Shown: positions 11,332-37,178 of the stretch, piece by piece | Layout: every line of letters starts with the position of its first letter | Numbering within the stretch: position 1 is the stretch's first letter | Source of the DNA: an uncultured Actinomycetota bacterium | Lineage (GTDB): Bacteria; Actinomycetota; Geothermincolia; Geothermincolales; RBG-13-55-18 | Direction: 5' to 3' | NCBI GenBank assembly: GCA_964529285.1 | Contig: CAZGWK010000004.1 | Span: 25,868-77,679 of the forward strand | Length of the DNA: 51,812 bases | Position numbers and translations under genes: made by a program | The notes under the pieces: generated by a model | What the model was told of the DNA's origin: nothing | The model's database searches: none | Seen by the model: the letters and a program-made list of their open reading frames with translations, nothing else

Positions 11332-11361
11332 TTGACACATGCCCGAAGCCCCGGATATTTT
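11332..11361 (+). promoter_or_regulatory. Putative sigma70-type promoter of the polyP operon
   Basis: TTGACA (11332-37)-N18-TATTTT (11356-61), about 100 bp upstream of the SixA-like gene. Confidence 0.45.
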
Positions 11362-11465
11362 ATATGCAGAGCCATAAGCCTTGATGGCAGGAGATATCAG
11401 GAGTTCCGGGGGTCTTGCCTGCAAGGTAGCAGTATCCAGTGTTGCCAGCGGTAGGTGAGGTTCGG

Positions 11466-11978
11466 TTGAAGATCGTTTTTCTGGTCAGACATGCCAAATC
11501 GAGCTGGAAAGACCCTTCTCTGCCCGACAGGGACAGGCCGCTCAAGAAGCGCGGAGCCAGGGACCTTGAGTTGCTGAGGCCGGCCTTGACCGCACAAGAA
11601 CACAGGCCCGAACGCGTGTTCTCCAGCGATGCCAGGAGGGCGGCGGATACCGCCACAACCCTGGCCGGGTTTTACGGCCTGAAGAAGAGCCGCGTCACTT
11701 TCTCGCATGAACTGTATGCCGCTTCCCCGGGGGAGATCCTCGATTTCATCCGCAACCGGGACGCTAAGCTACGCAGCATAATGGTGGTCGGGCACAACCC
11801 CGGGATAAGCGAAGCGGCAGACCTTCTCGGAGTTGAACCCCCGGAGGCTTGGCTGCCTACATCGGCCGTCGTCTGTTTCGGTTTCGCCGCAGATAGATGG
11901 GCCCGGCTGCGAGAGAACACCGGCGATCTGGAGTTCTACGAATATCCAAAGAAGTACAAAGAGGAGATATCGGGATAA
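11466..11978 (+). CDS. sixA: SixA-like histidine phosphatase family protein
   Basis: Motifs LVRHAKSSW, DRDRPL, SSDARRAADT and MVVGHNP. TTG 11466 follows GGTGAGG. Confidence 0.85.
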   Translation: MKIVFLVRHAKSSWKDPSLPDRDRPLKKRGARDLELLRPALTAQEHRPERVFSSDARRAADTATTLAGFYGLKKSRVTFSHELYAASPGEILDFIRNRDAKLRSIMVVGHNPGISEAADLLGVEPPEAWLPTSAVVCFGFAADRWARLRENTGDLEFYEYPKKYKEEISG

Positions 11979-14038
11979 ACAAGTACATCAACCGGGAGTT
12001 GAGCTGGCTCTCCTTCAACGAGAGGGTCCTGCAGGAGGCGGAAGACACCGCCGTACCGCTCCTGGAGAGGCTGCAGTTCCTGGGCATATTCTCATCAAAC
12101 CTGGACGAGTTCTTCAGCGTAAGGGTGGGCACGCTCAAGCGCCTCATCGCCTCGGGACAGAAACCGGCGACGCTTATCGGGGGGACGCCGAAAACGGTGC
12201 TGGAGCAGGTGTTAGAAAGGGCGAGGTGCCTGCGCGACCGCTTCGAGAAAGACCTCGCCACGGTCCTGGACGAACTGGAAAAAGAAAGCATCATCATGGT
12301 GGACGAGAAGGGCTTGAGCGCGGAGCAGGAAGAGTACTTGCAGGATTACTTCTCCGCAAAGGTCCACCCCAGGCTCATCCCCATCATGCTCGATAACGTG
12401 CATGACTTCCCTTATCTGCACAATCTCGTCATCTATCTGGCCGTCGTCATCAAGACGAGGGACAAGGGATCCGGGGAGCAGTATGCTTTGATAGAGGTCC
12501 CGGCTGACGTGCTGCCCAGGTTCAACAGGCTTCCGGGAGGCAGCGATAAAACCTACGTCATAATGCTCGATGATATGATCCGCTACGGCCTCAAGGATAT
12601 ATTTTCCATGTTCGACTCCGAGGACATATCCGCATACACCATCAAGATGACGCGCGATTCCGAGTTGGATATCGAGTCGGACATCACCACCAGCCTGTTC
12701 GAGCAGATATCGCGCTCGATCAAGAACCGCAAGTACGGGAACCCCGTCCGTTTCGTGTACGACCGTGAAATACCCGAAGGCCTCCTGGACTACATCGCCC
12801 GTAAGAACAAGCTCTCCCCCGAGATAATGATCTCCGGCGGCAGGTATCATAACGCGAGGGACATGGCGACCTTTCCGGATCTGGGCAAGCGCTTCAACAG
12901 GCTGAAATACAAACACCCCGAGCCGCTGGAGCATGCGGTATTGCGTGAGTATACCAGTTCTCTGCGGGCCATAGAAGACCAGGACGTCCTGCTTCACTTC
13001 CCCTATCAGTCCTTCCATTACATCATCGACCTGCTGCGCGAAGCCGCCATCGACAAGGACGTCGTCTCCATCAAGATGACGCTGTACCGCGTCGCAGATG
13101 AATCGCAAGTGGTCAACGCCCTGATAAACGCCAGAAGAAACGGCAAGGAAGTCACCGTGGTCGTGGAGCTCCAGGCCCGTTTCGACGAGGAAGCGAACAT
13201 CCAGTGGACTGAGCGCCTGATCGAAGAGGGCGCGAACGTCATCCCGGAAATACCCGGAGTAAAGGTACACTGCAAATTACTGCTGATAACGCGCAAGGAA
13301 AAGAGGGGGTTCAAGCATTATGCGGGTCTCAGCACGGGGAACTTCAACGAATCCACCGCCAGGATATACGCCGACCACGCGCTGCTCACCAGCGACCCCA
13401 GGATCACCTGCGAAGCAGGGAATCTCTTCGAGTTCCTGGAGAACAGCTTCAAATCCTTTAATTACCGCCACCTTCTCGTCTCCCCCTTCAACATGACCAA
13501 GCAGCTGTATAAACACATAAAGAACGAGGTGAAGAACGCCCAGGAGGGGAAAGAAGCCTATATCTACGCCAAGCTCAACAGCTTCTCGCACAAGAAGACC
13601 ATCAACAGGCTCTACCGGGCCAACGATGCCGGGGTCAACATCAAGATGGTCAACCGCGGCATCTGCTGCCTCTTGCCCGGCGTAGAGGGCCTGAGCGAGA
13701 ATATCGAGGTGATCAGCATCGTGGACAAGTATCTGGAGCACTCACGCATCATTGTCTTCTGCAACGACAACGACCCCCTGGTCTTCATAGCCTCCGCCGA
13801 CTGGATGACGAGGAATTTCGAACGCCGCATCGAGGTGGGGGTCCCCATATACGACGCGAAGATAAAAACGGAGCTGATCGACTACCTCAAGATCCAGCTG
13901 AGCGACAACGTGAAAGCGAGGATCATCAACGAGGGCCAGGACAACAGCGAGAGAAACGTGACGGGTAAGAAGAAGCTGAGGGCCCAGGACGCGATATACG
14001 GATACCTGGAGGACAAGCTGCGCAGCGGCAAGGGGTAG
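11975..14038 (+). CDS. ppk1: Polyphosphate kinase 1
   Basis: Motifs INRELSWLSFNERVL, SSNLDEFF, LLHFPYQSF, ELQARFDEEANI, KVHCK (phospho-His) and YLEHSR. The probable start is ATA 11975; the ORF-track ATG 11897 lies inside sixA. Confidence 0.96.
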   Translation: MNKYINRELSWLSFNERVLQEAEDTAVPLLERLQFLGIFSSNLDEFFSVRVGTLKRLIASGQKPATLIGGTPKTVLEQVLERARCLRDRFEKDLATVLDELEKESIIMVDEKGLSAEQEEYLQDYFSAKVHPRLIPIMLDNVHDFPYLHNLVIYLAVVIKTRDKGSGEQYALIEVPADVLPRFNRLPGGSDKTYVIMLDDMIRYGLKDIFSMFDSEDISAYTIKMTRDSELDIESDITTSLFEQISRSIKNRKYGNPVRFVYDREIPEGLLDYIARKNKLSPEIMISGGRYHNARDMATFPDLGKRFNRLKYKHPEPLEHAVLREYTSSLRAIEDQDVLLHFPYQSFHYIIDLLREAAIDKDVVSIKMTLYRVADESQVVNALINARRNGKEVTVVVELQARFDEEANIQWTERLIEEGANVIPEIPGVKVHCKLLLITRKEKRGFKHYAGLSTGNFNESTARIYADHALLTSDPRITCEAGNLFEFLENSFKSFNYRHLLVSPFNMTKQLYKHIKNEVKNAQEGKEAYIYAKLNSFSHKKTINRLYRANDAGVNIKMVNRGICCLLPGVEGLSENIEVISIVDKYLEHSRIIVFCNDNDPLVFIASADWMTRNFERRIEVGVPIYDAKIKTELIDYLKIQLSDNVKARIINEGQDNSERNVTGKKKLRAQDAIYGYLEDKLRSGKG

Positions 14039-14048
14039 TGAACCAGGC

Positions 14049-15554
14049 ATGAAGCCATTCTATTTCCGAACCGATGACGACAGATCACGGGCTTTCGCGC
14101 TGCTGGTCGAGGAGAGGTTCGAGGTGGAGCGAGGTCCTTCCTGTGTGGCGCCGGTCACGCTTTACGACACCTTCGACTGGAGATTGTACAGGAAGGGGTG
14201 TTTTGCTTATGCGGTGAAGGGCTCGTTCAATATCCAGGGGTCGAACGACCAGTCGCCGTTTATCACGTGTGCGCTCGAGAGCGTGCCCAGGTTCTGGTGG
14301 GAGTGCGAGGAGGAACGCCTGCGCGGATTCCTGGAAGACATCACGGGCATAAGGGCTCTCCTGCCGCTGGCAACGTTCGAGCTTCGCGAACAGCAATACC
14401 TGGCGAGAAACGAGGACGTAAAGATCGTGAGCCGGTTCTCGCTCCTGACCCACGCCGCACGCGGCAACGGTTCGCAGTCATACCTGTTCGTGAAACCCCT
14501 CAAGGGCTATCCGGAAGAGCGGGACCTCCTCCTGGCAGCGGCCGGGGAATCGGCCATGCAGGAGCTTCCGCACCCGCTAATGGAAGAGCTAATGCTCGCA
14601 GCCTGGATCCATCCCGGGGATTACAGCTCCAAGCTCGACGTACGCCTGAACAGGGGGCAGACCGTTACCGAAGCAGCCCTGGTCATCCTCAAACACCTTC
14701 TTTCCACCATCAGGTCCAACGTCCCCGGCATCATCAAGGATTACGATACCGAGTTCCTGCACGACTTTCGCGTGGCCACGCGAAGGAGCAGGGCCTGCCT
14801 TTCCCAGGTCAAGGAGGCCTTCCCGCCAGAGGCAAGGAGGAAATACAACGCTGACTTCAAGAGGACAGCCAAGGAGTGCAACCTGCTGAGGGACCTCGAC
14901 GTATATCTCCTCGACAAGCAGCGTTACTACGATATGCTGCCGGAACACCTGCGCGCGGGGCTGGACCGCTATTTCATGCACATACAGCGCAGAAGAAACA
15001 GCCAGCAGAAACGGTTCGCAGGTTTCCTTCGCACGGAGGCTTTCCGTTCGGCCCTGGACGACTGGGAGGCGTTCCTGGAAAACCCGCAGCTGCCGTCAGC
15101 AAGCCCCCCGGCGTTCGAGATCGCAAGGTCGCGCATCAGCGCCAGCTTCGCGAAGATAATAAAACGGGGGCGCAAGATCACGGATGCATCCCCCGATGAA
15201 GGCCTGCACAGGCTGCGCATAGAGTGCAAGAGGCTGCGCTACCTCCTCGAGTTCTTCGCGTCGCTGTTCCCGCGCAAAAAGACGGAGAGCCTTATCGGGC
15301 ATCTCAAGGGTCTCCAGGACGACCTGGGCGAGTTCAACGACCTCACTATGCAGCAGATCAATCTCAATGCCTATCTGGAACGCGCAGAGAGCAGCCTGCA
15401 GAAAAGCCGGCTGGAGGCGGCGGCGATAGGCGGCCTCGTCGCCATGCTCCACGAGCGCCAGGGCGAAGTCAGAGAGGGTTTTTACCGCAGTTTCGCGGAT
15501 TTCGATTCCAAGCAGGTACACGCGATATGCGAGGAGCTTTTCGGGAAAGGGTAA
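14049..15554 (+). CDS. CHAD-domain polyphosphate-binding protein with N-terminal CYTH-like region
   Basis: CHAD motifs LHDFRVATRR, LRDLDV, LHRLRIECKRLRYLLEFF and LQDDLGEFND. The N-terminal LYDTFDWRL resembles the CYTH YxDT motif. Confidence 0.9.
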   Translation: MKPFYFRTDDDRSRAFALLVEERFEVERGPSCVAPVTLYDTFDWRLYRKGCFAYAVKGSFNIQGSNDQSPFITCALESVPRFWWECEEERLRGFLEDITGIRALLPLATFELREQQYLARNEDVKIVSRFSLLTHAARGNGSQSYLFVKPLKGYPEERDLLLAAAGESAMQELPHPLMEELMLAAWIHPGDYSSKLDVRLNRGQTVTEAALVILKHLLSTIRSNVPGIIKDYDTEFLHDFRVATRRSRACLSQVKEAFPPEARRKYNADFKRTAKECNLLRDLDVYLLDKQRYYDMLPEHLRAGLDRYFMHIQRRRNSQQKRFAGFLRTEAFRSALDDWEAFLENPQLPSASPPAFEIARSRISASFAKIIKRGRKITDASPDEGLHRLRIECKRLRYLLEFFASLFPRKKTESLIGHLKGLQDDLGEFNDLTMQQINLNAYLERAESSLQKSRLEAAAIGGLVAMLHERQGEVREGFYRSFADFDSKQVHAICEELFGKG

Positions 15555-15555
15555 A

Positions 15556-16302
15556 GTGCGCGTAATCTCCCTATACAGCATAAAGGGCGGCGTGGGCAAA
15601 ACCACCGCTGCGGTCAATTTTGCATATCTGAACGCCGCGGGAGGAAGGAGAACGCTGCTGTGCGACCTCGACCCCCAGGCGTCGGCGTCGTTCTACTTCC
15701 GCATCAAGCCCCGGGTCGGGCAGAGCGCGAAGATGATGGTTTCCTCGGGCGGCAAGGCCGCAGGATTTATCAGAGCAACCGATTACGAAAACCTCCATCT
15801 TCTGCCTTCGGATATATCCTTTCGCAAGCTGGATATACGGATCGACAGGGCCAAGCACTCCAAGAAAGCCTTGCAGTACGCCCTGCGGCAGTTCGACGAG
15901 GACTATGATACCCTCTTCATCGACTCCCCCCCGAACATCACCATGCTCTCGGAAAACATCTTCCGGGTTTCGGACATACTGCTCGTGCCGGTTATTCCCA
16001 CCACTCTCTCCAGGCGGACCCTGGAGCAGCTGCGCGCTTTCCTCTCGAGACAGGAAATACGCGTCGAACACGTTATCCCCTTCTTCTCGATGGTCGACGC
16101 GAGAAAGAGCCTGCACAGGCAGATGATGGAAGAGCTTTGGAGCGCCCAGCCGGATTTTCTGAAGCATTACATACCCTATCGTTCCGAGATCGAGAGAATG
16201 GGGATCTTCCGGGCTCCACTTCCCGCGGTGCGTCCGGGGAGCGAAAGCGCCAGGGGGATCGCGTTGTTGTGGCAGGAGATATTGGAAAGGGCGCCGGTTT
16301 GA
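15556..16302 (+). CDS. Orphan ParA/MinD-family ATPase
   Basis: Deviant Walker A KGGVGKTT, plus DLDPQ and IDSPP. There is no adjacent parB, and it starts 1 bp after the CHAD stop. Confidence 0.9.
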   Translation: MRVISLYSIKGGVGKTTAAVNFAYLNAAGGRRTLLCDLDPQASASFYFRIKPRVGQSAKMMVSSGGKAAGFIRATDYENLHLLPSDISFRKLDIRIDRAKHSKKALQYALRQFDEDYDTLFIDSPPNITMLSENIFRVSDILLVPVIPTTLSRRTLEQLRAFLSRQEIRVEHVIPFFSMVDARKSLHRQMMEELWSAQPDFLKHYIPYRSEIERMGIFRAPLPAVRPGSESARGIALLWQEILERAPV

Positions 16303-16305
16303 ACC

Positions 16306-17217
16306 ATGGAGATCGAAAAGAAGTTTCTGCTCAAAGAACTGCCGGGAAAGCTGTATGGTTATCCGTCCGTGTTCATAGAACAGGGATACATCGTCATAAC
16401 CGCGAACGAGGAGCTCCGCATAAGAAAAGGGAACGGTGCGCATATATTGACCTTCAAGAAAGGCACGGGAACGACGAGGCACGAGATCGAGATCGGCATA
16501 TCCGAGGAACAGTACGATGAGTTCAAACCGTGCGTCGTCGGTACACCGATATCGAAAACGAGAGTCAAATATCCCTATAGGGAACATACGATAGAGATAG
16601 ACGTCTACAAGGGGGGCCTGGAGGGCTTGATCACGGCCGAGGTGGAGTTCTCCTCGCCGCACGACATGCAGGAGTTCTCCCCGCCCTCCTGGTTCGGAGA
16701 GGACGTCTCGCTTGATGATGATTTTAAAAACAAGAACCTGGCGTTGCAGGGCTTTCCCGCATCCCTTCTCCGCAAGTGGAAAGAAACGGGCAGGCCCCCC
16801 TGGCACTTCAGGCAGTCCGGGGTCGTCCCATACCGCCATGCGGAAGCAGGCTGCGAGGTCCTGCTCGTCACCACGCGAAGATCGGGCAAGTGGGTGATCC
16901 CGAAGGGCATCGTCGAGCCCGACCTCTCGCCAGTGGACTCCGCCAGGAAGGAAGCCCTCGAAGAGGCGGGCGTTCGCGGAACCGTCTGCGAGGAGATAGA
17001 AGAGTCGTATTCCTACGACAAGTGGGGCGGACGATGCGAGGTCGAGATCTTCCCGCTCCGGGTGAGCGAGCAGCTCACAAGCTGGCCAGAAGGCGCTATC
17101 CGCCAGCGGGAATGGGTGCCGCAAGGACATCTAGACGAGTATCTAGAAAACGAGGGGTTGAGGGAGGCGGTTTTACGCATATTGCATCGGCTTCCAGAGA
17201 TCGCAGAACGAAGCTAG
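16306..17217 (+). CDS. CYTH domain-Nudix hydrolase fusion
   Basis: N-terminal MEIEKKFL (ExExK), IEQGY, KTR and AEVEF. C-terminal [18 protein letters not shown]...[10 protein letters not shown] (Nudix box, DIPP/Ddp1-like). Confidence 0.88.
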
Positions 17218-17230
17218 CACAGGAGTTGTT

Positions 17231-18355
17231 ATGTCCAAACTGATCGGAATACTGACCGCTGGCGGCGACACGCCGGGCCTGAACGCGGCGATCCGGGGTA
17301 TCGGTAAGGCCGCGCTCGGCGAATATGGTTTCGAGGTCATCGGCTTCAAAGACGGCTTCCGCGGGATGGTCCATAACAGGTTCATGCGACTGGACAGGGG
17401 CGTTCTCTCCAATATCGTCTCCAGCGGCGGCACCATCCTCGGCACCAGCAGGGACAAGCCGCACAAGATGAACATCGGCGGGAAGATCCTGGATATGACA
17501 GACGTAATAGCAGAGAACTATTACAAGAACCAGCTGGAAGCGCTTATATGCCTGGGGGGAGGAGGGACCCAGAAAAACGCTTATCGCCTGGTGGAGAAGG
17601 GCCTGAACGTCATCACGCTGCCCAAGACCATCGATAACGATGTAGTAAAGACCGACGTTACCATCGGCTTCGATACCGCCATGAGCATCGCCACCGAGGC
17701 CATCGACAGGCTGCATACCACCGCCCACAGCCACCACCGGATAATCGTAGTGGAGACCATGGGGCACAAGGTGGGTTGGCTCGCGCTCGGCGCGGGCATA
17801 TCGGGCGGCGCGGACGTGATACTCATCCCCGAGATCCCTTACGACATCGGCATTGTCGCCGAATCCGTTCTGCGGAGATACAGGACGGGCAAGGGCTTCA
17901 GCATCGTGGTCGTCGCGGAGGGCGCCGTGTCCCGGGAGGAAGCTCTCATGGCCGAAGGACAGCCTCAAACACCGGACGACGACCGTAACGGCAATGAAAC
18001 GGGCAAGACGAAGGAAGAGCTCAGGTACATGCGGGACCGCATGAACGAAAACACCCTTCGCCTCGCGGAGAAGCTCGAGGGGATGACCCAGCTCGAATCA
18101 CGCGTGACCATCCTCGGACATCTCCAGCGTGGCGGAGCGCCCTCGTCCGCGGACAGGCTTCTGGCAAGCAGCCTGGGCACCACGGCCGCTGAACTGGCCG
18201 CGCGCCGGAAATTCGGGGTCATGGTGGCTTCGAGGGCCAGCGAGGCGGTCCCCGTTGCCCTGGAAGAGGTCGCCGGCAAGAGGAAGCTCGTGCCCGCCGA
18301 CCATCCCCTGATAGAATCGGCACGCCACCTGGGTACCTGCTTCGGGGACAAATAA
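17231..18355 (+). CDS. pfkA: 6-phosphofructokinase (PfkA superfamily, group III-like)
   Basis: Motifs [43 protein letters not shown] and LGHLQRGG. Confidence 0.93.
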
Positions 18356-18522: not shown

Positions 18523-18551
18523 AAAAAGCTCCGGCATGCCGACCGGAGCTT
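18523..18551 (-). terminator. Intrinsic terminator after tRNA-Ile
   Basis: 9-bp stem AAGCTCCGG/CCGGAGCTT followed by a T-run on the minus strand. Confidence 0.8.
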
Positions 18552-25838: not shown

Positions 25839-26123
25839 TTACTTCAGGTTTATTTTTCTTATGATTACTTCGCTTATCTCTATTCCTGCGCTTTCTTTTA
25901 TGCCTTTTTTAATATCCTCTATGCGAAAGTGTATTTCCTGGGCCCAGGCGTGTGATTGCACTCCGATAAAGAGCTTTCCTGCTTCCAGCCTGTAGGGCTT
26001 CGTCTCCGCCGACACCTTTTCTCCCACAATGCGTTCCCAGCCTTCCCTTATGAGGAGCAGGTCCTCGAGCGCCCCCATCCCCGACTGGGAAAGAAGTCCG
26101 TGCATCGCCTCTCTTATGTCCAT
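25839..26123 (-). CDS. dciA: DUF721/DciA-family protein
   Basis: WERIVGEKVSAETKP...SHAWAQE, in the canonical position between recF and gyrB. Confidence 0.8.
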   Translation of the reverse strand: MDIREAMHGLLSQSGMGALEDLLLIREGWERIVGEKVSAETKPYRLEAGKLFIGVQSHAWAQEIHFRIEDIKKGIKESAGIEISEVIIRKINLK

Positions 26124-26146
26124 TCCCCCGCCTTCTCGCGTTGGTT

Positions 26147-27205
26147 CTATTCCCCCCCGTCCAGCCATATCTTGTGGGTCCCATCGAGTTCCGGGCTATC
26201 GTCCGTGGTCGTCAGCAGTACCTGTTCCCAGCCAGCGAGTTCGTTCAAAACGATGCATCGGTTTTTATCGTCCAGCTCCGAAAGACAGTCGTCCATCAGC
26301 ATAATCGTCTTTCTGCCCGTGACGACCTCGTTGAGTTTTGCCTGCGTTATCCTCCACATGATGGTAACCAGCTTCTGCTCCCCCTGCGAACATTCCCTCC
26401 TCACGTTCTTTCCCTCCAGAAAAAACAGTAGCTCGTCCCTGTGTGGTCCTACCAGGGTCGTTCCTCTTCTTATCTCCGCTTCCTCCATCCTCTTTATCTT
26501 CTGCATGGTTTTCTCTTCTTCTGTTATATCCTCTCCCATGGAGGTATAATACTTCATCTCCACTTTTTCTTTTCCCCACCTTGCTCCCAGCGCGGCCATC
26601 TCCTCGCTCATGTCAGCGAGGGTCTTTTTTCTCTCCTCCACTATCGACCTTCCCTTGCTATAAAGCAGTGGGTTCCAATTTCTTATAAACTCCCTGTCCT
26701 TAAACCCCCTCCTGACCGCCTTGAGGGCTTCGTTTCTCTGTTTCAATGCGCGCTGATATTCCCTCAATGTCTCCCGGTAACCTGCCTTTGTCTCTACTAT
26801 GACCTCGTCAAGATATCTTCTTCTGGCCTCCGGTCCTCCCTTCACCATCCATATGTCGTCCGGCTGAAAAGAAACGGCCGTTATATCCTTTGGTGGCTTT
26901 TTTCCCTTTACCCCCTCTTCCCTGCTGATGACGTTCCTGACCTTTATGTCCCTTCCCTTGCGGATAGCGGCCTCTATTACGGCTTCTTCTTCGCCGTTCC
27001 TGACCAACTCTCTTTCGTCGCTGGTGCGCATCGATCTTCCCTGCAGCAGAAAAAAAAGGGCTTCGAGAAGATTGCTCTTCCCTCGCCCGTTTCCCGCGAT
27101 AACCACGTTTATACCGGGTTCGAACTCTATCGCACTGCTTTCATAGTTGCGGTAGTCTTTTAATCGTATTCTTCTTATCACGGTCCTTTCTCTGTCCCCC
27201 CTCAC
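26147..27205 (-). CDS. recF: DNA replication/repair protein RecF
   Basis: Motifs YRNY, GNGRGKSNLLEA, GGPEARRRYLD, GPHRD, SQGEQK and DDCLSELD. The start may be GTG 27181. Confidence 0.94.
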   Translation of the reverse strand: MRGDRERTVIRRIRLKDYRNYESSAIEFEPGINVVIAGNGRGKSNLLEALFFLLQGRSMRTSDERELVRNGEEEAVIEAAIRKGRDIKVRNVISREEGVKGKKPPKDITAVSFQPDDIWMVKGGPEARRRYLDEVIVETKAGYRETLREYQRALKQRNEALKAVRRGFKDREFIRNWNPLLYSKGRSIVEERKKTLADMSEEMAALGARWGKEKVEMKYYTSMGEDITEEEKTMQKIKRMEEAEIRRGTTLVGPHRDELLFFLEGKNVRRECSQGEQKLVTIMWRITQAKLNEVVTGRKTIMLMDDCLSELDDKNRCIVLNELAGWEQVLLTTTDDSPELDGTHKIWLDGGE

Positions 27206-28290
27206 AGCCTGATGGGCATAATAATATACATGAAGTCCGTTCCTTCTCTCTCCTTTATTGTTCCTGGCTTCAGGGCCTCCGTTATGCTGATAACCAGCTT
27301 TTCGCCATCGATGGAGATGATACCCTCTTCAAGGAACCTGCTGTTGAAGGCGATTTCCATGTCCTCACCTTCATATACCGCCGCTATTTCCTCTCTCCCC
27401 TCTCCTACTTCCCTGGACTCGCTAACCATGTTCATACCGTTGTTGCCAATTTTAAGCTTTACCGTACTACTTATGAGAGAGGCTCTCTTGAGAGCGCCCA
27501 ACATCTCGTCTTTTTCCACTTCTACAACCTTCTCGAGGCTGTCGGGCATAAACTTCCCGTACTTCGGAAACTTTCCCTCTATAAGCCTTATAATATGGCT
27601 CGTTTCTCCCATCTCGAATCTTACCTGACCTTTGTTCTCGTCTCGGTACAAATTTATTTTTTCCGCCTTCCCCACGATCCTCACCAGATTTACCATCGCC
27701 GAGGCGGGTATTATATATTGCCCTTCCTCCTGCATTTTATAACCGCTTTTTATACTTCGTATTGCCAGGCGGTAGCTGTCCGTACTTACCATCCTTATTT
27801 CTTCTCCCTCTATCTCCAGCAATATCCCTAAAAGGGTCGGCCTTTTTTCGTCCTTCGATGCGGCTCGCGATACCTTCTGTATGGCAGGTGCGATAACCTT
27901 GGTCTCTACGTCCTCGAGTATGGGAATAGAAACGAGTGGAGCATTCGGAAAATCCTCCGCCGGCATGGTAAAGAGTTTGAATTCCGTTTTCTGCCCACTC
28001 AACACCATCTCGTTCCCCACCATCTCCACGTTCGTTTTCTCATCCTTTAAATCTCTGAGAAAATCCATGAGGATCTTCATATTTACTACGCAGGTACCCT
28101 CCTCTTCCACCTTTGCCGAGCAGCCCGTGACGGTATAGGATTCCAGGTCGGTCGCGTGCAATACCAGCCTGTCCCGCTCGCTTTCAATCTTGATACCCGA
28201 GAGAATAGGCATCATCCCCTTCGTGTTTGCCGAATATTGTACAATCTGTACTGCGTTTAAAAAGTCTTCCCTGAGAGCGCTGAATTTCAT
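27202..28290 (-). CDS. dnaN: DNA polymerase III beta clamp
   Basis: Motifs ATDLE, STDSYRLA, RLIEGKFP, IAFNSRFL and C-terminal IMPIRL. Confidence 0.97.
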   Translation of the reverse strand: MKFSALREDFLNAVQIVQYSANTKGMMPILSGIKIESERDRLVLHATDLESYTVTGCSAKVEEEGTCVVNMKILMDFLRDLKDEKTNVEMVGNEMVLSGQKTEFKLFTMPAEDFPNAPLVSIPILEDVETKVIAPAIQKVSRAASKDEKRPTLLGILLEIEGEEIRMVSTDSYRLAIRSIKSGYKMQEEGQYIIPASAMVNLVRIVGKAEKINLYRDENKGQVRFEMGETSHIIRLIEGKFPKYGKFMPDSLEKVVEVEKDEMLGALKRASLISSTVKLKIGNNGMNMVSESREVGEGREEIAAVYEGEDMEIAFNSRFLEEGIISIDGEKLVISITEALKPGTIKEREGTDFMYIIMPIRL

Positions 28291-28543
28291 AATCTCCTTA
28301 CCTCCTTCTACTTCTTATTCTTTATAAATATATCTTAGGAGTAGTAATAATAGGGGGTGTGTAAGATGTTGAAAAGTCCTGTTTTATGAGTGGGGCTGGG
28401 AAAAACGGTTGTAGAAAACGTTGTGAGACAGTCGATGAAAAGATGTTGAAAAAACAAGGTTGTTGACACCCCCGTACCCCCGCGATTTTTTCTGCACGCA
28501 TTCAGGACACATACCCACAGGTTTTAGACAGGATTTTCACCCC
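28291..28543. other. Replication origin oriC (dnaA-dnaN intergenic)
   Basis: On the minus strand: tandem DnaA-box-like 9-mers TTTTCAACA (28367-75) and TCTTACACA (28358-66), then CCCC, the DnaA-trio run CTA TTA TTA CTA CTC CTA (28336-53) and an AT-rich stretch. Further degenerate boxes (TTTTCTACA, TTTTCAACA) lie toward dnaA. Confidence 0.88.
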
Positions 28544-29887
28544 TTACCCCAACTTTATTCTATTGGTGAGTTTCTGCACGGCATTGTAGATCTCTCTTTT
28601 CTCCTCCATAAGAGTCTTTATTTTTTCGACAGAGTGAATAGTAGTGGAATGATGACGGCCCCCAAAAGCATTGCTTATGGCGGGAAGGGACTGGTCGGTC
28701 AGTTCCCTGCACAGATACATACAGACCTGGCGAGCGGTGACAAGTTGTCTGGAGCGGTTAGGGCTCGAGAGTTGTGTAACGGATATGTTGAAATAATCCG
28801 CGGTCACTTCCATTATGCGGTCTATCGTTATGTCCCGGTTCTCTTCCTCGGGCAGTATATCGCGGAGGACGTCCTTGGCCATTGCAAGGGTGATCTCTTC
28901 CTTTGTCAGGCTTGAATAGGCAACAACGCGGATGAGGGCTCCCTCTAATTCCCGTATGTTTGAGTCGAAGCGCGAGGCGATATAGTTTGTGACTTCGTCA
29001 GGCACGTCCTTCTTGTCGAGAGCACACTTCTTTCTCAAGATGGCTATTCTGGTCTCGAGCTCAGGTGGTTGTATGTCGGTTATAAGGCCCCACTCGAACC
29101 TGGACACCAGGCGTTCCTGCAACCCGTCTATCTCTTTTGGAGGACAATCGCTGCTTAGGACTATCTGGCGGTTGTTATTATGAAGGTCGTTGAAGGTATG
29201 AAAAAACTCCTCGACAGTCCTTTCCTTATTGGCCAGGAACTGTATGTCGTCGATGAGGAGCATGTCTATGGAGCGGTATTTTTTCTGGAAGGAAGGAACC
29301 TTGCCGGACTTTACGCAATTGATGAAGTCGTTGAGAAACTGTTCGGAGGACCGGTAAATAACCTTGAAGTTGGGATATAGTCTTTTAGTATAATGCCCGA
29401 TAGAATGGAGGAGGTGGGTTTTTCCCAGACCCACCCCTCCGTAGATATAAAGGGGATTATAGGAAGTAGGGTTCTCGGAGACGGACAGGGCGGCCGCGTG
29501 GGCGAAGCGGTTGCTTGCCCCGATTACGAAGGTATCGAAGGTAAAGCGCGTGATCAGGTCGCTGGAGGCATCGCTGCCCTCGTCTTCAGCGAGGATGTTT
29601 ACGTCAAGATAGACGGGGCCGCGGGACCCCTTTTTGCGACGGTCTTTAAGGACGACCTGCACCTGCTCTACGCCCGGAAACACCTCAGACGCAACCTCCT
29701 GTAGAAGGTTAAGATATCTCTTATCGACCCACTCCTTCGTGAAGCTGTTGTTGGTATAAACGATGAGCGTTGAGCCCTCCACCTTATCGGCGTGCAGGTT
29801 TTTAAACCACATGGAGGAAGAATCGGTAACGCGCTCCTGGATGATGTCCTTGCACTTTTCCCATAAAAGGCTCGTTTTTGGCGACAT
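28544..29887 (-). CDS. dnaA: Chromosomal replication initiator DnaA
   Basis: Motifs YNPLYIYGGVGLGKTHLL, LLIDDIQFL, EEFFHTFN and NIRELEGAL, with a domain IV ending GGRHHSTTIHS. Confidence 0.98.
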   Translation of the reverse strand: MSPKTSLLWEKCKDIIQERVTDSSSMWFKNLHADKVEGSTLIVYTNNSFTKEWVDKRYLNLLQEVASEVFPGVEQVQVVLKDRRKKGSRGPVYLDVNILAEDEGSDASSDLITRFTFDTFVIGASNRFAHAAALSVSENPTSYNPLYIYGGVGLGKTHLLHSIGHYTKRLYPNFKVIYRSSEQFLNDFINCVKSGKVPSFQKKYRSIDMLLIDDIQFLANKERTVEEFFHTFNDLHNNNRQIVLSSDCPPKEIDGLQERLVSRFEWGLITDIQPPELETRIAILRKKCALDKKDVPDEVTNYIASRFDSNIRELEGALIRVVAYSSLTKEEITLAMAKDVLRDILPEEENRDITIDRIMEVTADYFNISVTQLSSPNRSRQLVTARQVCMYLCRELTDQSLPAISNAFGGRHHSTTIHSVEKIKTLMEEKREIYNAVQKLTNRIKLG

Positions 29888-29935
29888 TGGTTCATCCCCC
29901 GGGGAGGCTCGCGGACACGCTACAGCGCTATTCTA

Positions 29936-30682
29936 TTACAGCGACAGAAGGCCCTGCAAGTAGGACCTTCCCAGCTCTGAAAGGAATCTTTTTCCAGTTG
30001 AATCAACGTAAATGAGTCCTATTTCCTGGAGTTTTACCAGGTCACGGTGGGCGGTGCTGACCCCGATGTTCAATTCGGAGGACACACGCGACGGGCCGAG
30101 AGACTCCCCTTCCGAAAGCAGGAAGAGCACGTTATTCTGGCGCTGAGTGAGACGAAAAGCGTCCGAACCCGCCCAGACGGGCGACGAGGGAGACGGGGCG
30201 AGAGAGACCTGGGCGTAAGTCCCCTCGCCGGGCCCGGAATCGATGCGCAACTCCCCGCCGAGAGAGCGCACCTCTTCGCGCGCCAGGAAAAGCCCTATTC
30301 CAACGCCGCGTATGTATGACCTGTGGAAGTCCGTGGCGGTTGAATAGCCCAGCTCGAACGCCAGGTCCATTCGCCGTATGCCCGGTCCGTTATCGGAAAC
30401 AAAAAAAGTTTTGTTGTGAGCGTCGATCACAACCGAGGCGGAACATGGAACGGCGTGAACGAGGTTGTCGATAACCTCCTGCAGGGTGACTAGTGGAACG
30501 GCGGAACCGCTGCCGCTGAGTTCCTGGGCGATAAGGGCGGCCAGGTCCCCGGCATAATCGGGAAAAGAATCACCCCCTACGTCGACGATCCGGAAGGAGC
30601 CATCCTCGCCGAGCACGGCAACGCGGGTGTGCGGCGGCACAAGCGCCTCGGCACCTGACTCCTTTGCGCCCGGGGAAGCCAA
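29936..30682 (-). CDS. GHKL (HATPase_c) ATPase fused to a C-terminal winged helix-turn-helix
   Basis: N box EVIDNLVHA, G1 DNGPGI, GYSTA, G2 RGVGIGL and GGELRIDSGPGEGT; C-terminal LTQRQNNVL...GVSTAHRDLVKLQEIGLI. No HisKA domain. Probable TTG start at 30682; the ORF extends to 30883. Confidence 0.85.
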   Translation of the reverse strand: MASPGAKESGAEALVPPHTRVAVLGEDGSFRIVDVGGDSFPDYAGDLAALIAQELSGSGSAVPLVTLQEVIDNLVHAVPCSASVVIDAHNKTFFVSDNGPGIRRMDLAFELGYSTATDFHRSYIRGVGIGLFLAREEVRSLGGELRIDSGPGEGTYAQVSLAPSPSSPVWAGSDAFRLTQRQNNVLFLLSEGESLGPSRVSSELNIGVSTAHRDLVKLQEIGLIYVDSTGKRFLSELGRSYLQGLLSL

Positions 30683-33488: not shown

Positions 33489-33520
33489 ATTACCTGCGTT
33501 TCACGTGAAACGCAGGTAAT
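33489..33520. promoter_or_regulatory. parS site inside a 32-bp perfect palindrome
   Basis: ATTACCTGC-GTTTCACGTGAAAC-GCAGGTAAT. Confidence 0.9.
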
Positions 33521-34440
33521 TTTTCATAAAGGGTGCACAGCATGATGACCGCATATGATGCGGAAATGCAGCCCTAAACCCTGGCAACCAGGACAATTTG
33601 AGGACGATCTCTCCATTCGGATTAAAAGGCCCCGGTTTTACATAATCCACCCTCAAGGCAGCAATAAGTCTTAAGACAACTCATCTCCTTCGCAAGAAAC
33701 GTAGCGATATCCACACAGTGAGCAATGACTTCACTGATTCGGGCGAGTTTTTTGCGATCATGAGCCTTTTGCATAAACCAACCGTCACGTTGGGGTCGTG
33801 TCTGCGAACCTTGGTTTTGAATACAAAAAAACGCTTATCCTGGCCTTTCGAAAGAACGGGAGATGAAAAAACGGGAGATCGCAGACACTACCCTGTTCCG
33901 ATAACGAACTAGCGAGAAAAGGGGTTTTGTGCGATAGGCTCTCACGCCGCTTTTGCTGCGAAAATTGCGTTTAAAAGAACGGAATGACTGACTTTAAGCA
34001 ATGCGCGATTGTACTCCTGCCAAATGTCATTATGAACGCAATTATCGCAATAAAGCGCAAGGGCGCCCTTAAAGACTCAGCCGTTACTATAGGTACAGGT
34101 TTTGCCATTAGAGAACGAGTGGGTGAATATGGCAGTAAGGCATGAGATATCAAATGGCAATAGGGGCTTTGACGGTTGTATTTATCAAGGATACACATGA
34201 TTCCAATCCACAGGGCGATTTATTCGCAAACACAATCGTGTTCAGGATGGAATAATAAAAACATAGAACAGAAGCAGCATGGTAAAAATCCTTGCATGAG
34301 TTGAGTGAGGATTTGGGTGATGACAAAAAGAATTGCGTAAACTGTGAGGAATCAAGAAAAAGGTTGCAGCGTGAAGGCTTGAGGGAGATCTTAAACGCAA
34401 AGATATTGGAAAAGATGGCGATGTAAAGAATTGCGAAAAG

Positions 34441-34456
34441 TGTTTCACGTGAAACA
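34441..34456. promoter_or_regulatory. parS site
   Basis: TGTTTCACGTGAAACA, exact consensus. Confidence 0.95.
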
Positions 34457-34538
34457 AAAGGGAAGAATTACAGAGGCGATTGATATTAGAAAAAGCAATC
34501 TACACGGAGAAATGCGGTCGAGCTACAGAGAAAGAGTG

Positions 34539-34554
34539 TGTTTCACGTGAAACA
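34539..34554. promoter_or_regulatory. parS site
   Basis: TGTTTCACGTGAAACA, exact consensus. Confidence 0.95.
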
Positions 34555-34683
34555 AAAGCATAGAAACGTGTTGTTTGAGCAGTTCGGGTAAAATAAAAAA
34601 GGAAAGTATGGAAATAGAAAGAAAATTAGAACATAGTTATGAAAAGAAGAATACGTAAAACGATAAGTAGTCGAGGCCAGTGA

Positions 34684-35370
34684 TTGAAAAAAAATAACAT
34701 GAGAGAGAAGATAAAGACGGCCGTCGAGCGCGCAGCGGGAAGGATGGATATAGAGGGCTGGGAGAATAACCTCGAAAAGGCGATTAATTACGTAGAGGAG
34801 CTGCAGAAATGGAATAAGGCCTATAATCTTGTTGGAAGAAGGATAGGGATAGAGGGTATTCTCGATCTGTACGTTGACGCATTAACGCCTTTATCGGTAC
34901 GTGGCCTATTTGATGGAAGAAAGGAGGTGCTTGACGCAGGAAGCGGGGCTGGAATGCCTGGAATACCGCTATATCTCATGGTTGGTCCATTCCCGCTCAC
35001 TTTAGTTGAATCACAAAGAAAAAAAATCACGTTTCTCAGACACGTGTGCCGCGTGCTCGCACTGGATGATGTAGCCGTTTATCCGGGAAGATTAGAGGAA
35101 ATTGCCCGAGATGAAGACCATCTCAGCGCATATGATGTGGGATTAGCCAGGGCCGTCATGGAACCACTGCGCTTGTCGAGAACCATAAAGCCGCTGCTTT
35201 GCAAGGACGGCAGGACGGTTATTTTCGTAGGCAAGAAGGACGCGGAACGGATAAAGAGGTCAAGCTTGGATCTGACAGAAAAGGGTATGCAACTAGAAGC
35301 CATAAGGTCTATGCAGCGCATTGTTGGAAAAGAGAATTACTTGGCGGTATTAAGAAAGACTGGACGCTGA
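34684..35370 (+). CDS. rsmG: 16S rRNA m7G527 methyltransferase
   Basis: Motifs KWNKAYNLV, LDAGSGAGMPGIPL, VESQRKKITFL and ARAV; upstream of parAB. Confidence 0.93.
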   Translation: MKKNNMREKIKTAVERAAGRMDIEGWENNLEKAINYVEELQKWNKAYNLVGRRIGIEGILDLYVDALTPLSVRGLFDGRKEVLDAGSGAGMPGIPLYLMVGPFPLTLVESQRKKITFLRHVCRVLALDDVAVYPGRLEEIARDEDHLSAYDVGLARAVMEPLRLSRTIKPLLCKDGRTVIFVGKKDAERIKRSSLDLTEKGMQLEAIRSMQRIVGKENYLAVLRKTGR

Positions 35371-35434
35371 CTCTGTGGCGAAAACCTGGCGGCATAATAG
35401 CTGCCACGAGAGGCTAGTCGCGAGGTGAGGATCT

Positions 35435-36331
35435 ATGGAAGTTGAGAACAAGGATTTTGAAGAGGGGCTGGAAACGGAGAGCGCATCCACTGCAACGGAA
35501 GAGGCAGGCAGGGGGTTTGTGGATGAAAAATACCGCAGGGACGAGGAAGATGAGCAGGACGCGTCGAATGTGGGGAGGATAGTTGCAATCGCGAACCAGA
35601 AGGGCGGTGTGGGCAAGAGCACGACAGCGATAAACCTTGGTGCGTATCTGGCCGTGGAGGGCAAGCGGGTTCTGGTCGTTGACCTCGATCCGCAGAGCAA
35701 CTCAACAAGCGGTTTGGGTATAAGCCAGCAGGCAGACGGACATCAGATATACGATGTCCTCGTAAACGAAGTTCCCCTAGAGGACATAATAGTCCATACT
35801 TCAACTGAGGGCTTAGACTTGGCGCCTTCGTCGCTCAGGCTGGCGGGAGCTGAAGTCGAGCTGGTGTCGGTCTTCTCGCGAGAGGGGAGGCTCGCCAAGA
35901 GCATCGAGCCTATCAAGGCGGAGTATGAAATAATCCTGGTTGACTGCCCGCCCTCGCTGGGCCTCCTGACCGTTAATGCGCTAGCGGCAGCCGATGAGGT
36001 TCTGATACCTATACAGTGTGAGTACTATGCGTTGGAAGGCCTGGTGCTTCTGCTGAGGACCATAGAGAAGATACGCGTCTATCTCAACCCGAACCTGCGC
36101 ATAGGCGGCATATTATTAACGATGCACGATGCGCGTACAAACATCTCCAAGCAGGTGATGGACGAGGTAAGAAAACAGTATCCCAACGAGACGTTCTTCA
36201 CCGTTATTCCTCGTAACGTGCGCTTGAGCGAGGCGCCGAGCTACGGCCAGCCAATATCGCAATACGATCCGCTCTCGCGTGGCGCGAAGGCATATCAGAG
36301 TTTAGCGAAGGAAGTGATATCAAATGGCTAA
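35435..36331 (+). CDS. parA: Chromosome partition ATPase ParA/Soj
   Basis: Motifs [35 protein letters not shown] and [14 protein letters not shown]. Alternative GTG start at 35569. Confidence 0.96.
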
Positions 36332-37178
36332 GAAGGGTTTGGGTAAGGGGCTTGGCGCCCTCATTACCTCAAGCGCTGCCGCAGAGCAGCCGAGACACGA
36401 GATGATCCCGGTCGACAGCATCTCGCCTAATCCCCTGCAGCCCAGGAGAAGGTTTAACGAAGAGAGCCTCGAAGAGCTGGCCGAATCTATGAAAGAACAT
36501 GGCCTGGTGCAGCCTATAATCGTAAGGCCTGCGGGCACCGGTTATGAGATTCTAGTCGGCGAGCGCAGGTGGAGGGCGGCCCAGATAGCGGGGGCAACGG
36601 CTATACCTGCCGTTATTAGAGATGCAGAGACATCGGAATGTCTTCAGATCGCATTGGTTGAGAACCTCCATCGAGACGATCTCAACGGCATAGAAGAAGC
36701 CACGGCCTTCAGGCAACTCATGGAGGACTTTGGCCTCTCCCAGGACGAAATTTCCCAGAAAGTGGGAAAGAGCCGCTCGGCGGTGGCCAACGCCCTCCGG
36801 TTACTTCAACTTCCAGTAGAGGTTCAGGCAGCGGTCGTGGCCGAGGAGATCACCCCCGGCCACGCCCGCGCCCTTCTCGCCCTGCAAGGCGACCCATATC
36901 AGGCTATACTTCTGCAGCGCATTATCGAGGAGGATCTCTCGGTGCGCCAGGCCGAGGAGATCGCGAGGAGGCGATTGGGCGGGGCTGAAGAGCCGGCTCG
37001 CAAGGAGAAACCACAGTCACTGGGTGAATATGAAGACCTGATATCTGCCGGCCTGCGCGCAAAGGTGCGCGTCATCCAGGGAAAGCGCAAGGGAAAGATC
37101 ATAATCGAGTTCAAGGGGGAGAAAGAGCTGCAGCGGCTCATGTCGGATATGGGAATAGCTGCGCAGGAAGAAGGTTGA
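36324..37178 (+). CDS. parB: Chromosome partition protein ParB/Spo0J
   Basis: Motifs [34 protein letters not shown] and the [17 protein letters not shown]. Confidence 0.97.

Follow-up and report, generated by a model that had tools for sequence, protein, structure and literature searches.

Gene content of the polyphosphate cluster

The subject of this analysis is a pair of adjacent genes, one for a CHAD protein and one for a small ParA-like ATPase, which lie in a polyphosphate (polyP) gene cluster of an uncultured Actinomycetota bacterium (order Geothermincolales; assembly GCA_964529285.1, contig CAZGWK010000004.1, positions 25,868 to 77,679 of the forward strand). The whole stretch of 51,812 nucleotides (nt) that was analyzed is referred to as the window. 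Six genes on its plus strand, separated by tiny gaps, make up the cluster at 11.4–18.4 kilobases (kb): a sixA-like gene, ppk1, the CHAD gene, the parA-like gene, a CYTH-Nudix gene and pfk (Table 1). A preliminary description of this DNA had proposed that the CHAD protein serves as cargo adaptor for the ParA, which would space or segregate polyP granules on the nucleoid. What that description had observed in the sequence proved right wherever it was checked. We find that the ParA and this CHAD protein form a conserved, co-inherited pair, and we regard the ParA subfamily concerned as the best candidate so far for ATP-driven positioning of polyP granules.

The CHAD-ParA junction reads ...GGG TAA A GTG..., the CHAD stop codon occupying 15552–15554 and the ParA start codon following after 1 nt, as had been noted. 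The CYTH-Nudix gene begins 3 nt past the ParA stop, which leaves no space for a parB-like gene after ParA.

Table 1. Features of the window discussed in the text.
Feature	Coordinates	Strand	Evidence and remarks
Sigma-70-like promoter match, 5' of cluster	11332..11361	+	TTGACA-16/18-GATATT/TATTTT, 10/12; consensus match only
SixA-like histidine phosphatase open reading frame	11439..11978	+	Pfam His_Phos_1 8.8e-9; overlaps annotated ppk1 ATG
ppk1, polyphosphate kinase 1	11897..14038	+	TIGR03705 769 bits; all four PPK1 Pfam domains
CHAD protein, 501 amino acids	14049..15554	+	Pfam CHAD 1.2e-58
N-domain of CHAD protein, residues 1–190; degenerate CYTH/TTM fold, predicted ParA-docking module	14049..14618	+	AlphaFold2 model, Foldseek
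N-domain predicted ParA-contact codons	14415..14510	+	residues 123–126 = 14415–14426; residues 151–154 = 14499–14510
CHAD domain, residues 192–498, with stop codon; putative polyP-binding module, by homology	14622..15554	+	
ParA-like ATPase, 248 amino acids, GTG start, Soj-like fold	15556..16302	+	Pfam AAA_31 1.5e-33
ParA predicted partner-contact codons	15697..15798	+	residues 48–53 = 15697–15714; residues 70–81 = 15763–15798; includes FR[IV]KP
CYTH-Nudix fusion, candidate tri/polyphosphate hydrolase	16306..17217	+	Pfam CYTH 7.5e-6, NUDIX 4.7e-11; N-terminus MEIEKKF
6-Phosphofructokinase (pfk), final cluster gene	17231..18355	+	Pfam PFK 3.3e-94; NF002872 377 bits
Terminator-like hairpin 3' of pfk, perfect 10-bp stem	18526..18551	scored on -	palindrome between convergent units
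Chromosomal parS sites, rsmG, parA (Soj), parB	33497..37178	+	

The ParA-like ATPase

The translation of the ParA-like open reading frame (ORF) reads VRVISLYSIKGGVGKTT. It contains the intact deviant Walker A motif KGGVGKTT and the three basic stretches to which the preliminary description had drawn attention: RIKPR (residues 49–53), RIDRAKHSKK (95–104) and DARKSLHR (181–188). The deviant Walker A residues K10-G-G-V-G-K15-T16 are invariant in 45/45 aligned subfamily members (alignment A1), as are D37/D39 and D123, while R183/K184 are nearly invariant in the same alignment. Protein searches place the sequence in a tight family of 245–255 amino acids (aa) and ~50% identity, its source names including Gammaproteobacteria (Thiorhodococcus, Methylobacter, Methylococcales), KSB1 and Marinimicrobia, and a basic stretch of the form FRIKPKxKxGxK is specific to this family. 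Among 1.84 billion representatives there were 24,288 matches at E≤1e-3 and only 322 at E≤1e-30.

In a quick IQ-TREE tree built from 66 of 100 rows, for which the generic metagenome ParAs were thinned to every other one and 14 of the 16 Soj sequences of the relatives were taken out, 42 subfamily rows were split from 24 generic ParAs by a branch with a support of 100 in the Shimodaira-Hasegawa-like approximate likelihood ratio test (SH-aLRT). The cluster ParA is thus a member of a distinct Soj-like subfamily, apart from the generic ParAs. It had been suggested that this ParA might belong to a clade that co-occurs with CHAD and ppk; the clade is indeed separate, with a linkage to CHAD and in many cases also to ppk1.

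The AlphaFold2 (AF2) model of the protein has a predicted local distance difference test score (pLDDT) of 86. Its closest structural relatives in Foldseek are Soj/ParA structures, with template modelling (TM) scores of 0.87–0.90, followed at lower rank by McdA (0.84 on the query, TMq; 6NON/6NOP), MinD (~0.79), BcsQ (0.77) and FlhG (0.76). In alignments with Thermus thermophilus Soj and with 8RAY, R183 takes the position of the D-x-R arginine. In Soj this arginine presumably contacts DNA, and its conserved counterpart here suggests that the ParA may bind DNA non-specifically.

A complete chromosomal parABS locus was said to lie elsewhere on the same DNA, and it does: rsmG, parA and parB are found at 34684–37178, 18 kb from the cluster ParA. 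In the whole window the parS consensus is matched at 33497, 34441 and 34539 only (two exact, one with 2 mismatches), where chance would give 0. The cluster ParA, by comparison, has neither a parB-type gene nor parS beside it; it is enclosed by the CHAD gene, 1 nt away, and the CYTH-Nudix gene, 3 nt away, and parS is confined to 33.5–34.5 kb. Apart from the cluster ParA and the chromosomal Soj the source genome gave no ParA-like match at E≤1e-3; the identity between these two proteins is 25%. When compared with the NCBIfam partition models the cluster ParA scored under the cut-off of every one.

Linkage of the ParA subfamily with CHAD

A scan of metagenome contigs yielded 80 loci, of which 15 had tblastn E≤8e-37 and 65, the generic ParAs, had E≥9e-30; neighbors were scored by phmmer. 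CHAD is encoded directly upstream in 8 of the 15 close loci (L025–L029, L031, L033 and L035). L034 has ppk1 directly upstream, and L025 possesses both ppk1 and CHAD. Neither gene was found at any of the 65 generic loci. L030 and L038 were too short for their neighbors to be judged. In L025 (3391–5403) genes for a DUF4956 protein and a phytase-like protein precede those for CYTH, Nudix, CHAD and ParA, so that the pair has additional phosphate-related neighbors there.

In a sample of 401 genomes of the phylum the subfamily ParA is present in 21, and CHAD lies directly upstream of it in 11 of these, which belong to families f1, f13, f29 and f33. A CHAD gene occurs in 21/21 ParA-positive genomes versus 147/380 of the others, a difference which is statistically weak with only five families involved. 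The CHAD totals take in six unpublished genomes (G335, G123, G202, G152, G057 and G262), all of them ParA-negative.

Plasmid and chromid records provide a further setting. Eleven match the ParA at E≤1e-30, six of them from Paracoccus, and all five Paracoccus records that were opened display the order CHAD - AAA ATPase - CYTH (- NUDIX). In P. marcusii CP157 the CHAD-ParA-CYTH genes lie just downstream of pstA-pstB-phoU-phoB. On a Paracoccus liaowanqingii plasmid (L165 5001–5767) a frameshift divides the ParA into two annotated pieces, and an IS256 transposase is encoded close by.

A 2026 preprint, in the part of its text available, describes ParA genes coupled to variable enzymatic effectors, and CYTH and Nudix domains act on nucleotides; one might therefore ask whether the cluster serves, as another ParA-effector system, in defense against phages or mobile elements. 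We consider this hardly credible. The neighbors are phosphate-metabolism genes (ppk1 here, pst-phoU-phoB in Paracoccus), PADLOC returned a single short match to the ParA P-loop (residues 4–39, 3.7e-7) and nothing for the CHAD, CYTH-Nudix and PFK proteins, and the words CHAD, CYTH and granule do not appear in the text of the preprint.

The distance from the CHAD stop to the ParA start, the latter extrapolated from the alignment, is ≤9 nt in 18 of 20 distinct loci and 87–94 nt in the other two; in 9 the genes overlap by 4 nt. From this spacing the two proteins are probably co-translated. Where the context of a subfamily member is known, CHAD is thus mostly the gene just before it, be it in Actinomycetota, on Paracoccus replicons or on metagenome contigs. 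As in McdAB-like two-component systems, the ParA has an adjacent, co-inherited partner gene, here CHAD. A CYTH/Nudix gene follows ParA in the close relatives, in Paracoccus (as two separate genes) and in genomes G329 and G333, and the conserved unit therefore includes a CYTH/Nudix hydrolase alongside CHAD and ParA.

The CHAD protein and its N-terminal domain

CHAD proteins localize to polyP granules and bind polyP, according to the accessible parts of PMC6537752 and PMC9239181; the other literature statements below likewise refer to those parts of the sources that were available.

Residues 192–498 of the cluster protein match the CHAD structures 3E0S/6QV7 [2e-58]. In Foldseek this domain superimposes on the Chlorobium tepidum CHAD 6QV7 and on the polyP complex 6QVA with TM scores on the target (TMt) of 0.90–0.91 and 37% identity, and the CHAD helical bundle (PF05235) is recovered with TMt 0.90–0.93. 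The residues H238, R241, R245, R246, R248, R281, H387, R390, K394 and R397 are invariant in alignment A2. Homology to the solved CHAD-polyP complex suggests that this domain binds polyP.

The N-domain (residues 1–190) gave no match to Pfam, even at E≤1, nor any sequence match in the PDB, and likewise no Pfam CYTH was detected in three other ParA-linked CHAD proteins. The AF2 model of the whole protein (pLDDT 92.3, predicted TM score 0.87) was more informative: in Foldseek the N-domain resembles thiamine triphosphatase (ThTPase), the archaeal TTM/SaTTM and class IV cyclases with TMt 0.5–0.64, that is, it adopts the tunnel fold, and the full-length protein aligns with YgiF 5A60 over 483 columns. 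Judged by its model, the protein is a YgiF-like CYTH-CHAD protein with a degenerate CYTH domain. Its first strand, FYFRT, presumably lacks the ExExK signature of CYTH.

This N-domain goes with the ParA. Its profile matches 15 of the 16 assessable ParA-linked CHAD proteins versus 1 of 19 unlinked ones, and that one only marginally; three further linked CHADs are cut by contig ends and could not be assessed. Pfam, on the other hand, recognizes CYTH together with CHAD in 5/6 unlinked CHAD proteins versus CYTH in 0/4 linked ones. A profile of 12 ParA-linked N-domains (A3) found 11 of the 401 phylum genomes at E≤1e-20, and ten of these are genomes in which CHAD adjoins ParA. In the eleventh, G353 (L158 3818–5904), the CHAD gene is split into two ORFs by an internal TGA and ParA is absent within 7.2 kb; this locus may be what remains of a decaying pair. 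G333 was matched at 4.6e-9, and the remaining 30 matches, which include the unpublished genomes G123, G335 and G057, are weak and fall on ordinary CYTH domains. The CHAD partner linked to this ParA thus carries a ParA-specific N-domain.

Predicted contact between the two proteins

When two copies of ParA (A1) were co-folded with the CHAD protein (A2) the scores were 0.68, 0.64 and 0.66, so that the co-fold proposed for this pair gave a median of 0.66 compared with 0.01 for the best of 3 controls, the score referring to the partner only. The mark set by the co-folding tool is reached by 58 of 80 solved complexes versus 2 of 110 mismatched pairs, counts which hold only roughly here since our co-folds used alignments of our own and three chains. 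The runs share at least 88% of their contacts, with a partner pLDDT of at least 84. In the predicted interface ParA residues 48–51, 53, 70–74, 76 and 81 face N-domain residues 123–126 and 151–154. K125, G153 and Y154 are the only residues invariant in the 12 ParA-linked N-domains, which range from 17 to 55% in identity, and all three fall within this interface. ParA contributes its family-specific FR[IV]KP / [KR]x[TS]D region to the predicted contact, a region of low confidence (pLDDT 64–69) when ParA is modelled alone. The partner is therefore predicted to bind ParA through its N-domain and not through the CHAD domain.

The conserved, subfamily-specific basic stretch FRIKPKxKxGxK lies beside this contact, and polyP and DNA are both polyanions. 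ParA might accordingly use polyP instead of DNA as its matrix, coating or fissioning granules and limiting their coalescence. Part of the stretch is, however, predicted to touch the protein partner, and polyP binding would already be supplied by the CHAD domain; we hold this alternative to be improbable.

ParA R49 is present in 28/28 members with a CHAD neighbor or a fused CYTH versus 11/21 without (9 of f12, Halomonas and the S6PP fusion described below), raw counts which are not to be taken as statistical support.

Among the top 150 representatives 27 exceed 300 aa in length, and 20 of these were scanned for fusions. Six are ParA with a C-terminal CYTH, one is ParA with an S6PP/HAD phosphatase, and 12 carry unassigned extensions. 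In the phosphatase fusion (P0249, 561 aa) the subfamily ParA is joined to a sucrose-6F-phosphate phosphohydrolase-like HAD domain [S6PP, 9.5e-66]. Paracoccus marcusii pKGP1 (L171 5001–6263) also encodes an in-frame ParA-CYTH fusion. The fusions are in line with the predicted contact. In P0303 (710 aa) ParA is preceded by a weak N-domain match and by a CHAD match that covers just the first half of the domain; as this protein may be a frameshift chimera no less than a CHAD-ParA fusion, it was not used.

Gain and loss of the cluster among close relatives

Of 41 relatives, 4 (G000, G006, G008 and G011) have the ParA orthologue, at 72–87% identity, and exactly these 4 also have ppk1 and CHAD. Each of the four has a second ppk1 elsewhere, 60–62% identical to that of the cluster; in the source genome it is 62% identical and located on another contig (G000:C36:17395-19509). 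No match to the cluster ppk1 was obtained at E≤1e-30 in the other 37 relatives. Three related loci, L023, L024 and L001, have retained the order ppk1-CHAD-ParA-CYTH/Nudix; PFK comes next in L023 and L001 but not in L024. In L001 (7675–8755) the PFK matches fall into two or three pieces (residues 1–38 and 42–374), which suggests a frameshift or sequencing error.

In five genomes of the same genus that have no cluster the flanking HD/OB and RtcB genes are 1.1–2.1 kb apart versus 8.2 kb in the window, so the cluster of ~7 kb behaves as one indel. Together with the co-occurrence this spacing indicates that ParA was gained or lost along with the polyP genes. Since the cluster-bearing relatives are kin, this may have been a single event.

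Such indel behavior, with a G+C content below that of the flanks (0.56–0.59 in the cluster versus 0.60–0.66 in the 6–12 kb upstream), is also what one might expect of a DNA-partition ATPase left over from, or hitch-hiking on, a plasmid, island or second chromosome that came to lie beside CHAD by chance. Two subfamily members, from Halomonas and Pontibacter, are indeed located at the beginning of replicon records or beside it. Yet the cluster ParA has no parB or parS near it, the overlapping or near-touching arrangement of CHAD and ParA recurs in four Actinomycetota families, in Paracoccus and on 8 metagenome contigs, CHAD is missing from all 65 generic ParA loci, and the partner has its own linked N-domain. 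Chance association is in our judgment very improbable.

The limits of the operon are only suggested by the promoter and hairpin matches: 5 promoter-like sites were found versus 3.2 expected, and the promoter/terminator scan likewise gave 8 versus 7.6, both near chance. At the head of the cluster the SixA-like phosphatase may act on the phosphohistidine of PPK1; a His_Phos_1 gene also adjoins ppk1 in the metagenome locus L025. The cumulative GC skew of the window reaches its minimum at ~26000–30000, where the G+C content falls to 0.49–0.50, and this minimum is flanked by gyrA at 21–24 kb and by rsmG-parAB with parS at 33–37 kb. On the strength of the skew minimum, gyrA and rsmG-parAB/parS, the window probably spans the replication origin, and the polyP cluster would then be located ~10–15 kb from it.

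Evidence against granule positioning

Several results weigh against the view that the ParA and the CHAD protein position granules, the first of them concerning linkage. The close metagenome loci L032, L036 and L037 have no CHAD nearby and instead an alpha/beta-hydrolase gene (Esterase or Abhydrolase_2) downstream; L039 also lacks a nearby CHAD, its neighbors being unassigned, and L034 has ppk1 only. In the phylum sample the 10 of 21 ParA-positive genomes not accounted for above all belong to the high-G+C family f12 and have no CHAD within 1.5 kb of ParA, and 147 of the 168 CHAD-bearing genomes do not have this ParA. No CHAD was present in the flanks read of the Halomonas, Pontibacter, Marinobacter, Sphingomonas and Novosphingobium records. 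Within the flanking sequence covered, the kinase gene ppk1 accompanies ParA at some loci only, namely in the window, L001, L023, L024, L025 and L034, and not in L028 or L126–L130. The other results concern the contact. As predicted, it involves a folded domain, no arginine or lysine finger was identified, and a kinship-aware sign test of R49 against a partner in cis was not significant, with 2 independent pairs on supported branches and no power. In ParB, McdB and MinE the typical contact with a ParA-family protein is a short basic peptide. Finally, a role in the regulation of enzymes would account for the CYTH and S6PP/HAD fusions no less well than positioning would.

The ParAs of L032 (8716–9474), L036 (9239–9979) and L037 (1484–2230) form a side branch in which the FR[IV]KP motif has been lost. 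As for f12, all ten genomes hold a CHAD gene elsewhere (the loci were shown for 5 of the 5 searched), and the f12 clade nests within CHAD-linked branches of the tree, so that the separation of ParA from CHAD looks secondary. A class-V aminotransferase gene lies upstream of ParA in the two f12 loci examined (L112 287–1504 and L124 6106–7998). Long open frames of ~700 aa upstream of the f12 ParAs were considered as possible fusions and rejected, Pfam finding the ParA part only and the class-V aminotransferase in another frame.

These observations bear on the main alternative, in which the ParA, acting as a switch or scaffold that depends on ATP, would dock proteins of the CYTH fold at the granule (the pseudo-CYTH-CHAD protein, and possibly also the active CYTH-Nudix) and thereby control polyP turnover or the CHAD coat with no positioning on the nucleoid. 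The predicted contact does fall on a CYTH-fold domain; there are six ParA-CYTH fusions and one with a HAD phosphatase; ParA is followed by a CYTH/Nudix gene not only in the window but also in its close relatives, in Paracoccus and in G329 and G333; and the contact motif is retained in the f12 ParAs, an ordinary CYTH-CHAD protein being encoded elsewhere in those genomes. The CYTH-Nudix protein (P0004) moreover starts with MEIEKKF, which we take to resemble the CYTH signature. Against docking alone one may set the fold of the ParA, which is nearest to the nucleoid-binding Soj, its nearly invariant arginine aligned to that of D-x-R, and the absence of a Pfam signature from the CYTH-like domain of the partner, which suggests docking and not catalysis as the role of that domain. 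To our knowledge the known ParA/MinD relatives work by positioning and not by allosteric control of enzymes. On balance we regard a switch of this kind as rather unlikely.

Proposed mechanism

For granule positioning by the ParA with the CHAD protein as granule adaptor we would give a probability of about one in two, judging from sequences and models. Of what had first been proposed, the pairing of the two genes is borne out by their linkage, and an association of the two proteins is predicted by the co-fold. The assumed mode of contact needs revision, in that ParA is predicted to meet the N-domain and not the CHAD domain, and the pairing does not extend to that part of the subfamily which has no CHAD nearby; granule spacing would still follow from the likeness to known systems. 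Our starting points are that the genes are linked, that the ParA belongs to a clade of its own, that its partner has a specific N-domain, that an interface is predicted and that the cluster behaves as an indel; stimulation of the ATPase and positioning of the granules are inferred by analogy with known ParA/MinD systems.

The CHAD domain would hold the adaptor protein on the granule surface, while the degenerate CYTH-fold N-domain would dock on the subfamily-specific loop and hairpin of ParA (residues 48–53 and 70–81). The ATP-bound ParA dimer, Soj-like, would coat the nucleoid non-specifically. Contact with the granule-bound adaptor would lead to ATP hydrolysis and local release of ParA, and the resulting ParA gradient would space the granules along the nucleoid and share them among the daughter cells, as McdAB does for carboxysomes.

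A wider version of this proposal, to which we lend somewhat less than even credence, is that we are dealing with a widespread, dedicated system in which ATP drives the partition of granules of an inorganic polymer. In it a Soj-like ParA would ride on the nucleoid, a catalytically dead CYTH domain would have been recruited as docking module, the same ParA surface may recruit the active CYTH-Nudix and so couple positioning to turnover, and the module would move as a unit.

How bacterial polyP granules are placed and inherited is an open question, for which the ParA subfamily tied to CHAD offers a concrete candidate machine. This candidate comes with a predicted interface and named residues, R49 and K51 in ParA and K125, G153 and Y154 in the partner. 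As the module is present in culturable Paracoccus it is directly testable. If the proposal is true it would assign a function to the CHAD 'phosins', the role of which beyond polyP binding is described as unknown in the portion of the literature available, and would furnish an example of a pseudo-enzyme domain turned ParA adaptor.

Comparison with known systems

The preliminary description knew of no characterized system of this kind, and the literature agrees: when ParA was searched for in combination with polyP granules, CHAD or ppk1, no paper was found, within the text available, in which a ParA for such granules is suggested or put to the test. A 2025 review gives only AlgP for polyP granules in the sections available and marks the ATP dependence of positioning as unknown (PMC13052382). 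In Synechococcus elongatus polyP spacing is independent of McdAB and its mechanism is left undefined in the accessible part of a 2026 mBio article (PMC13556221). Polyphosphate is not mentioned in the available portions of a 2024 review of ParA/MinD proteins (PMC11407121), and those of a 2025 review of polyP and chromatin refer to ParA only in connection with carboxysomes and ParB (PMC11894788).

The nearest precedent in gene order is a conserved folD-ppk-parA-(CYTH-)CHAD cluster drawn for Acidithiobacillus, in which the ParA is called a plasmid/chromosome partition protein and, in the text at hand, no role is proposed for it (PMC10892726, PMC6416229). Compared by its published description only, this cluster likewise brings ppk1, parA and CHAD together, and its order resembles that of L034, in which ParA follows ppk1. 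Its CHAD protein is described as CYTH-CHAD, unlike that of the cluster analyzed here. The two-domain layout of our CHAD protein is that of the Escherichia coli YgiF-type CYTH-CHAD proteins and the CHAD 'phosins'; it differs from the YgiF type in that the N-domain is not a CYTH recognized by Pfam and that its sole invariant residues are the predicted ParA contacts.

With Soj/Spo0J of ParABS systems the cluster ParA shares the signature lysine of the deviant Walker A motif, the Walker A'/B aspartates and the Soj-like fold, as well as the conserved arginine that aligns to the D-x-R arginine of Soj. It departs from them in belonging to a separate clade, in having no ParB or parS and in possessing a loop of its own, FR[IV]KPKxKGG. 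The likeness to McdA/McdB is one of organization: the cluster ParA is small, has no parB or parS and lies beside a candidate cargo-bound adaptor in the gene cluster of the cargo itself, and the same nucleoid-based mechanism may be proposed by analogy. Unlike McdA, however, this ParA is nearer to Soj, and the present system is a candidate derived from sequence and models. The cargo would be a granule of inorganic polymer, and the adaptor is a folded two-domain protein of 501 aa, whereas McdB is small and disordered.

Storage granules are also linked to the nucleoid, with an effect on their spacing, by AlgP of Pseudomonas aeruginosa and by the PhaM, PhaF and PhaH tethers, as far as the available text of PMC13052382 describes them. 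Those tethers are single DNA-binding proteins with no known ATPase; in the system that we propose an ATPase would be dedicated to the granule protein.

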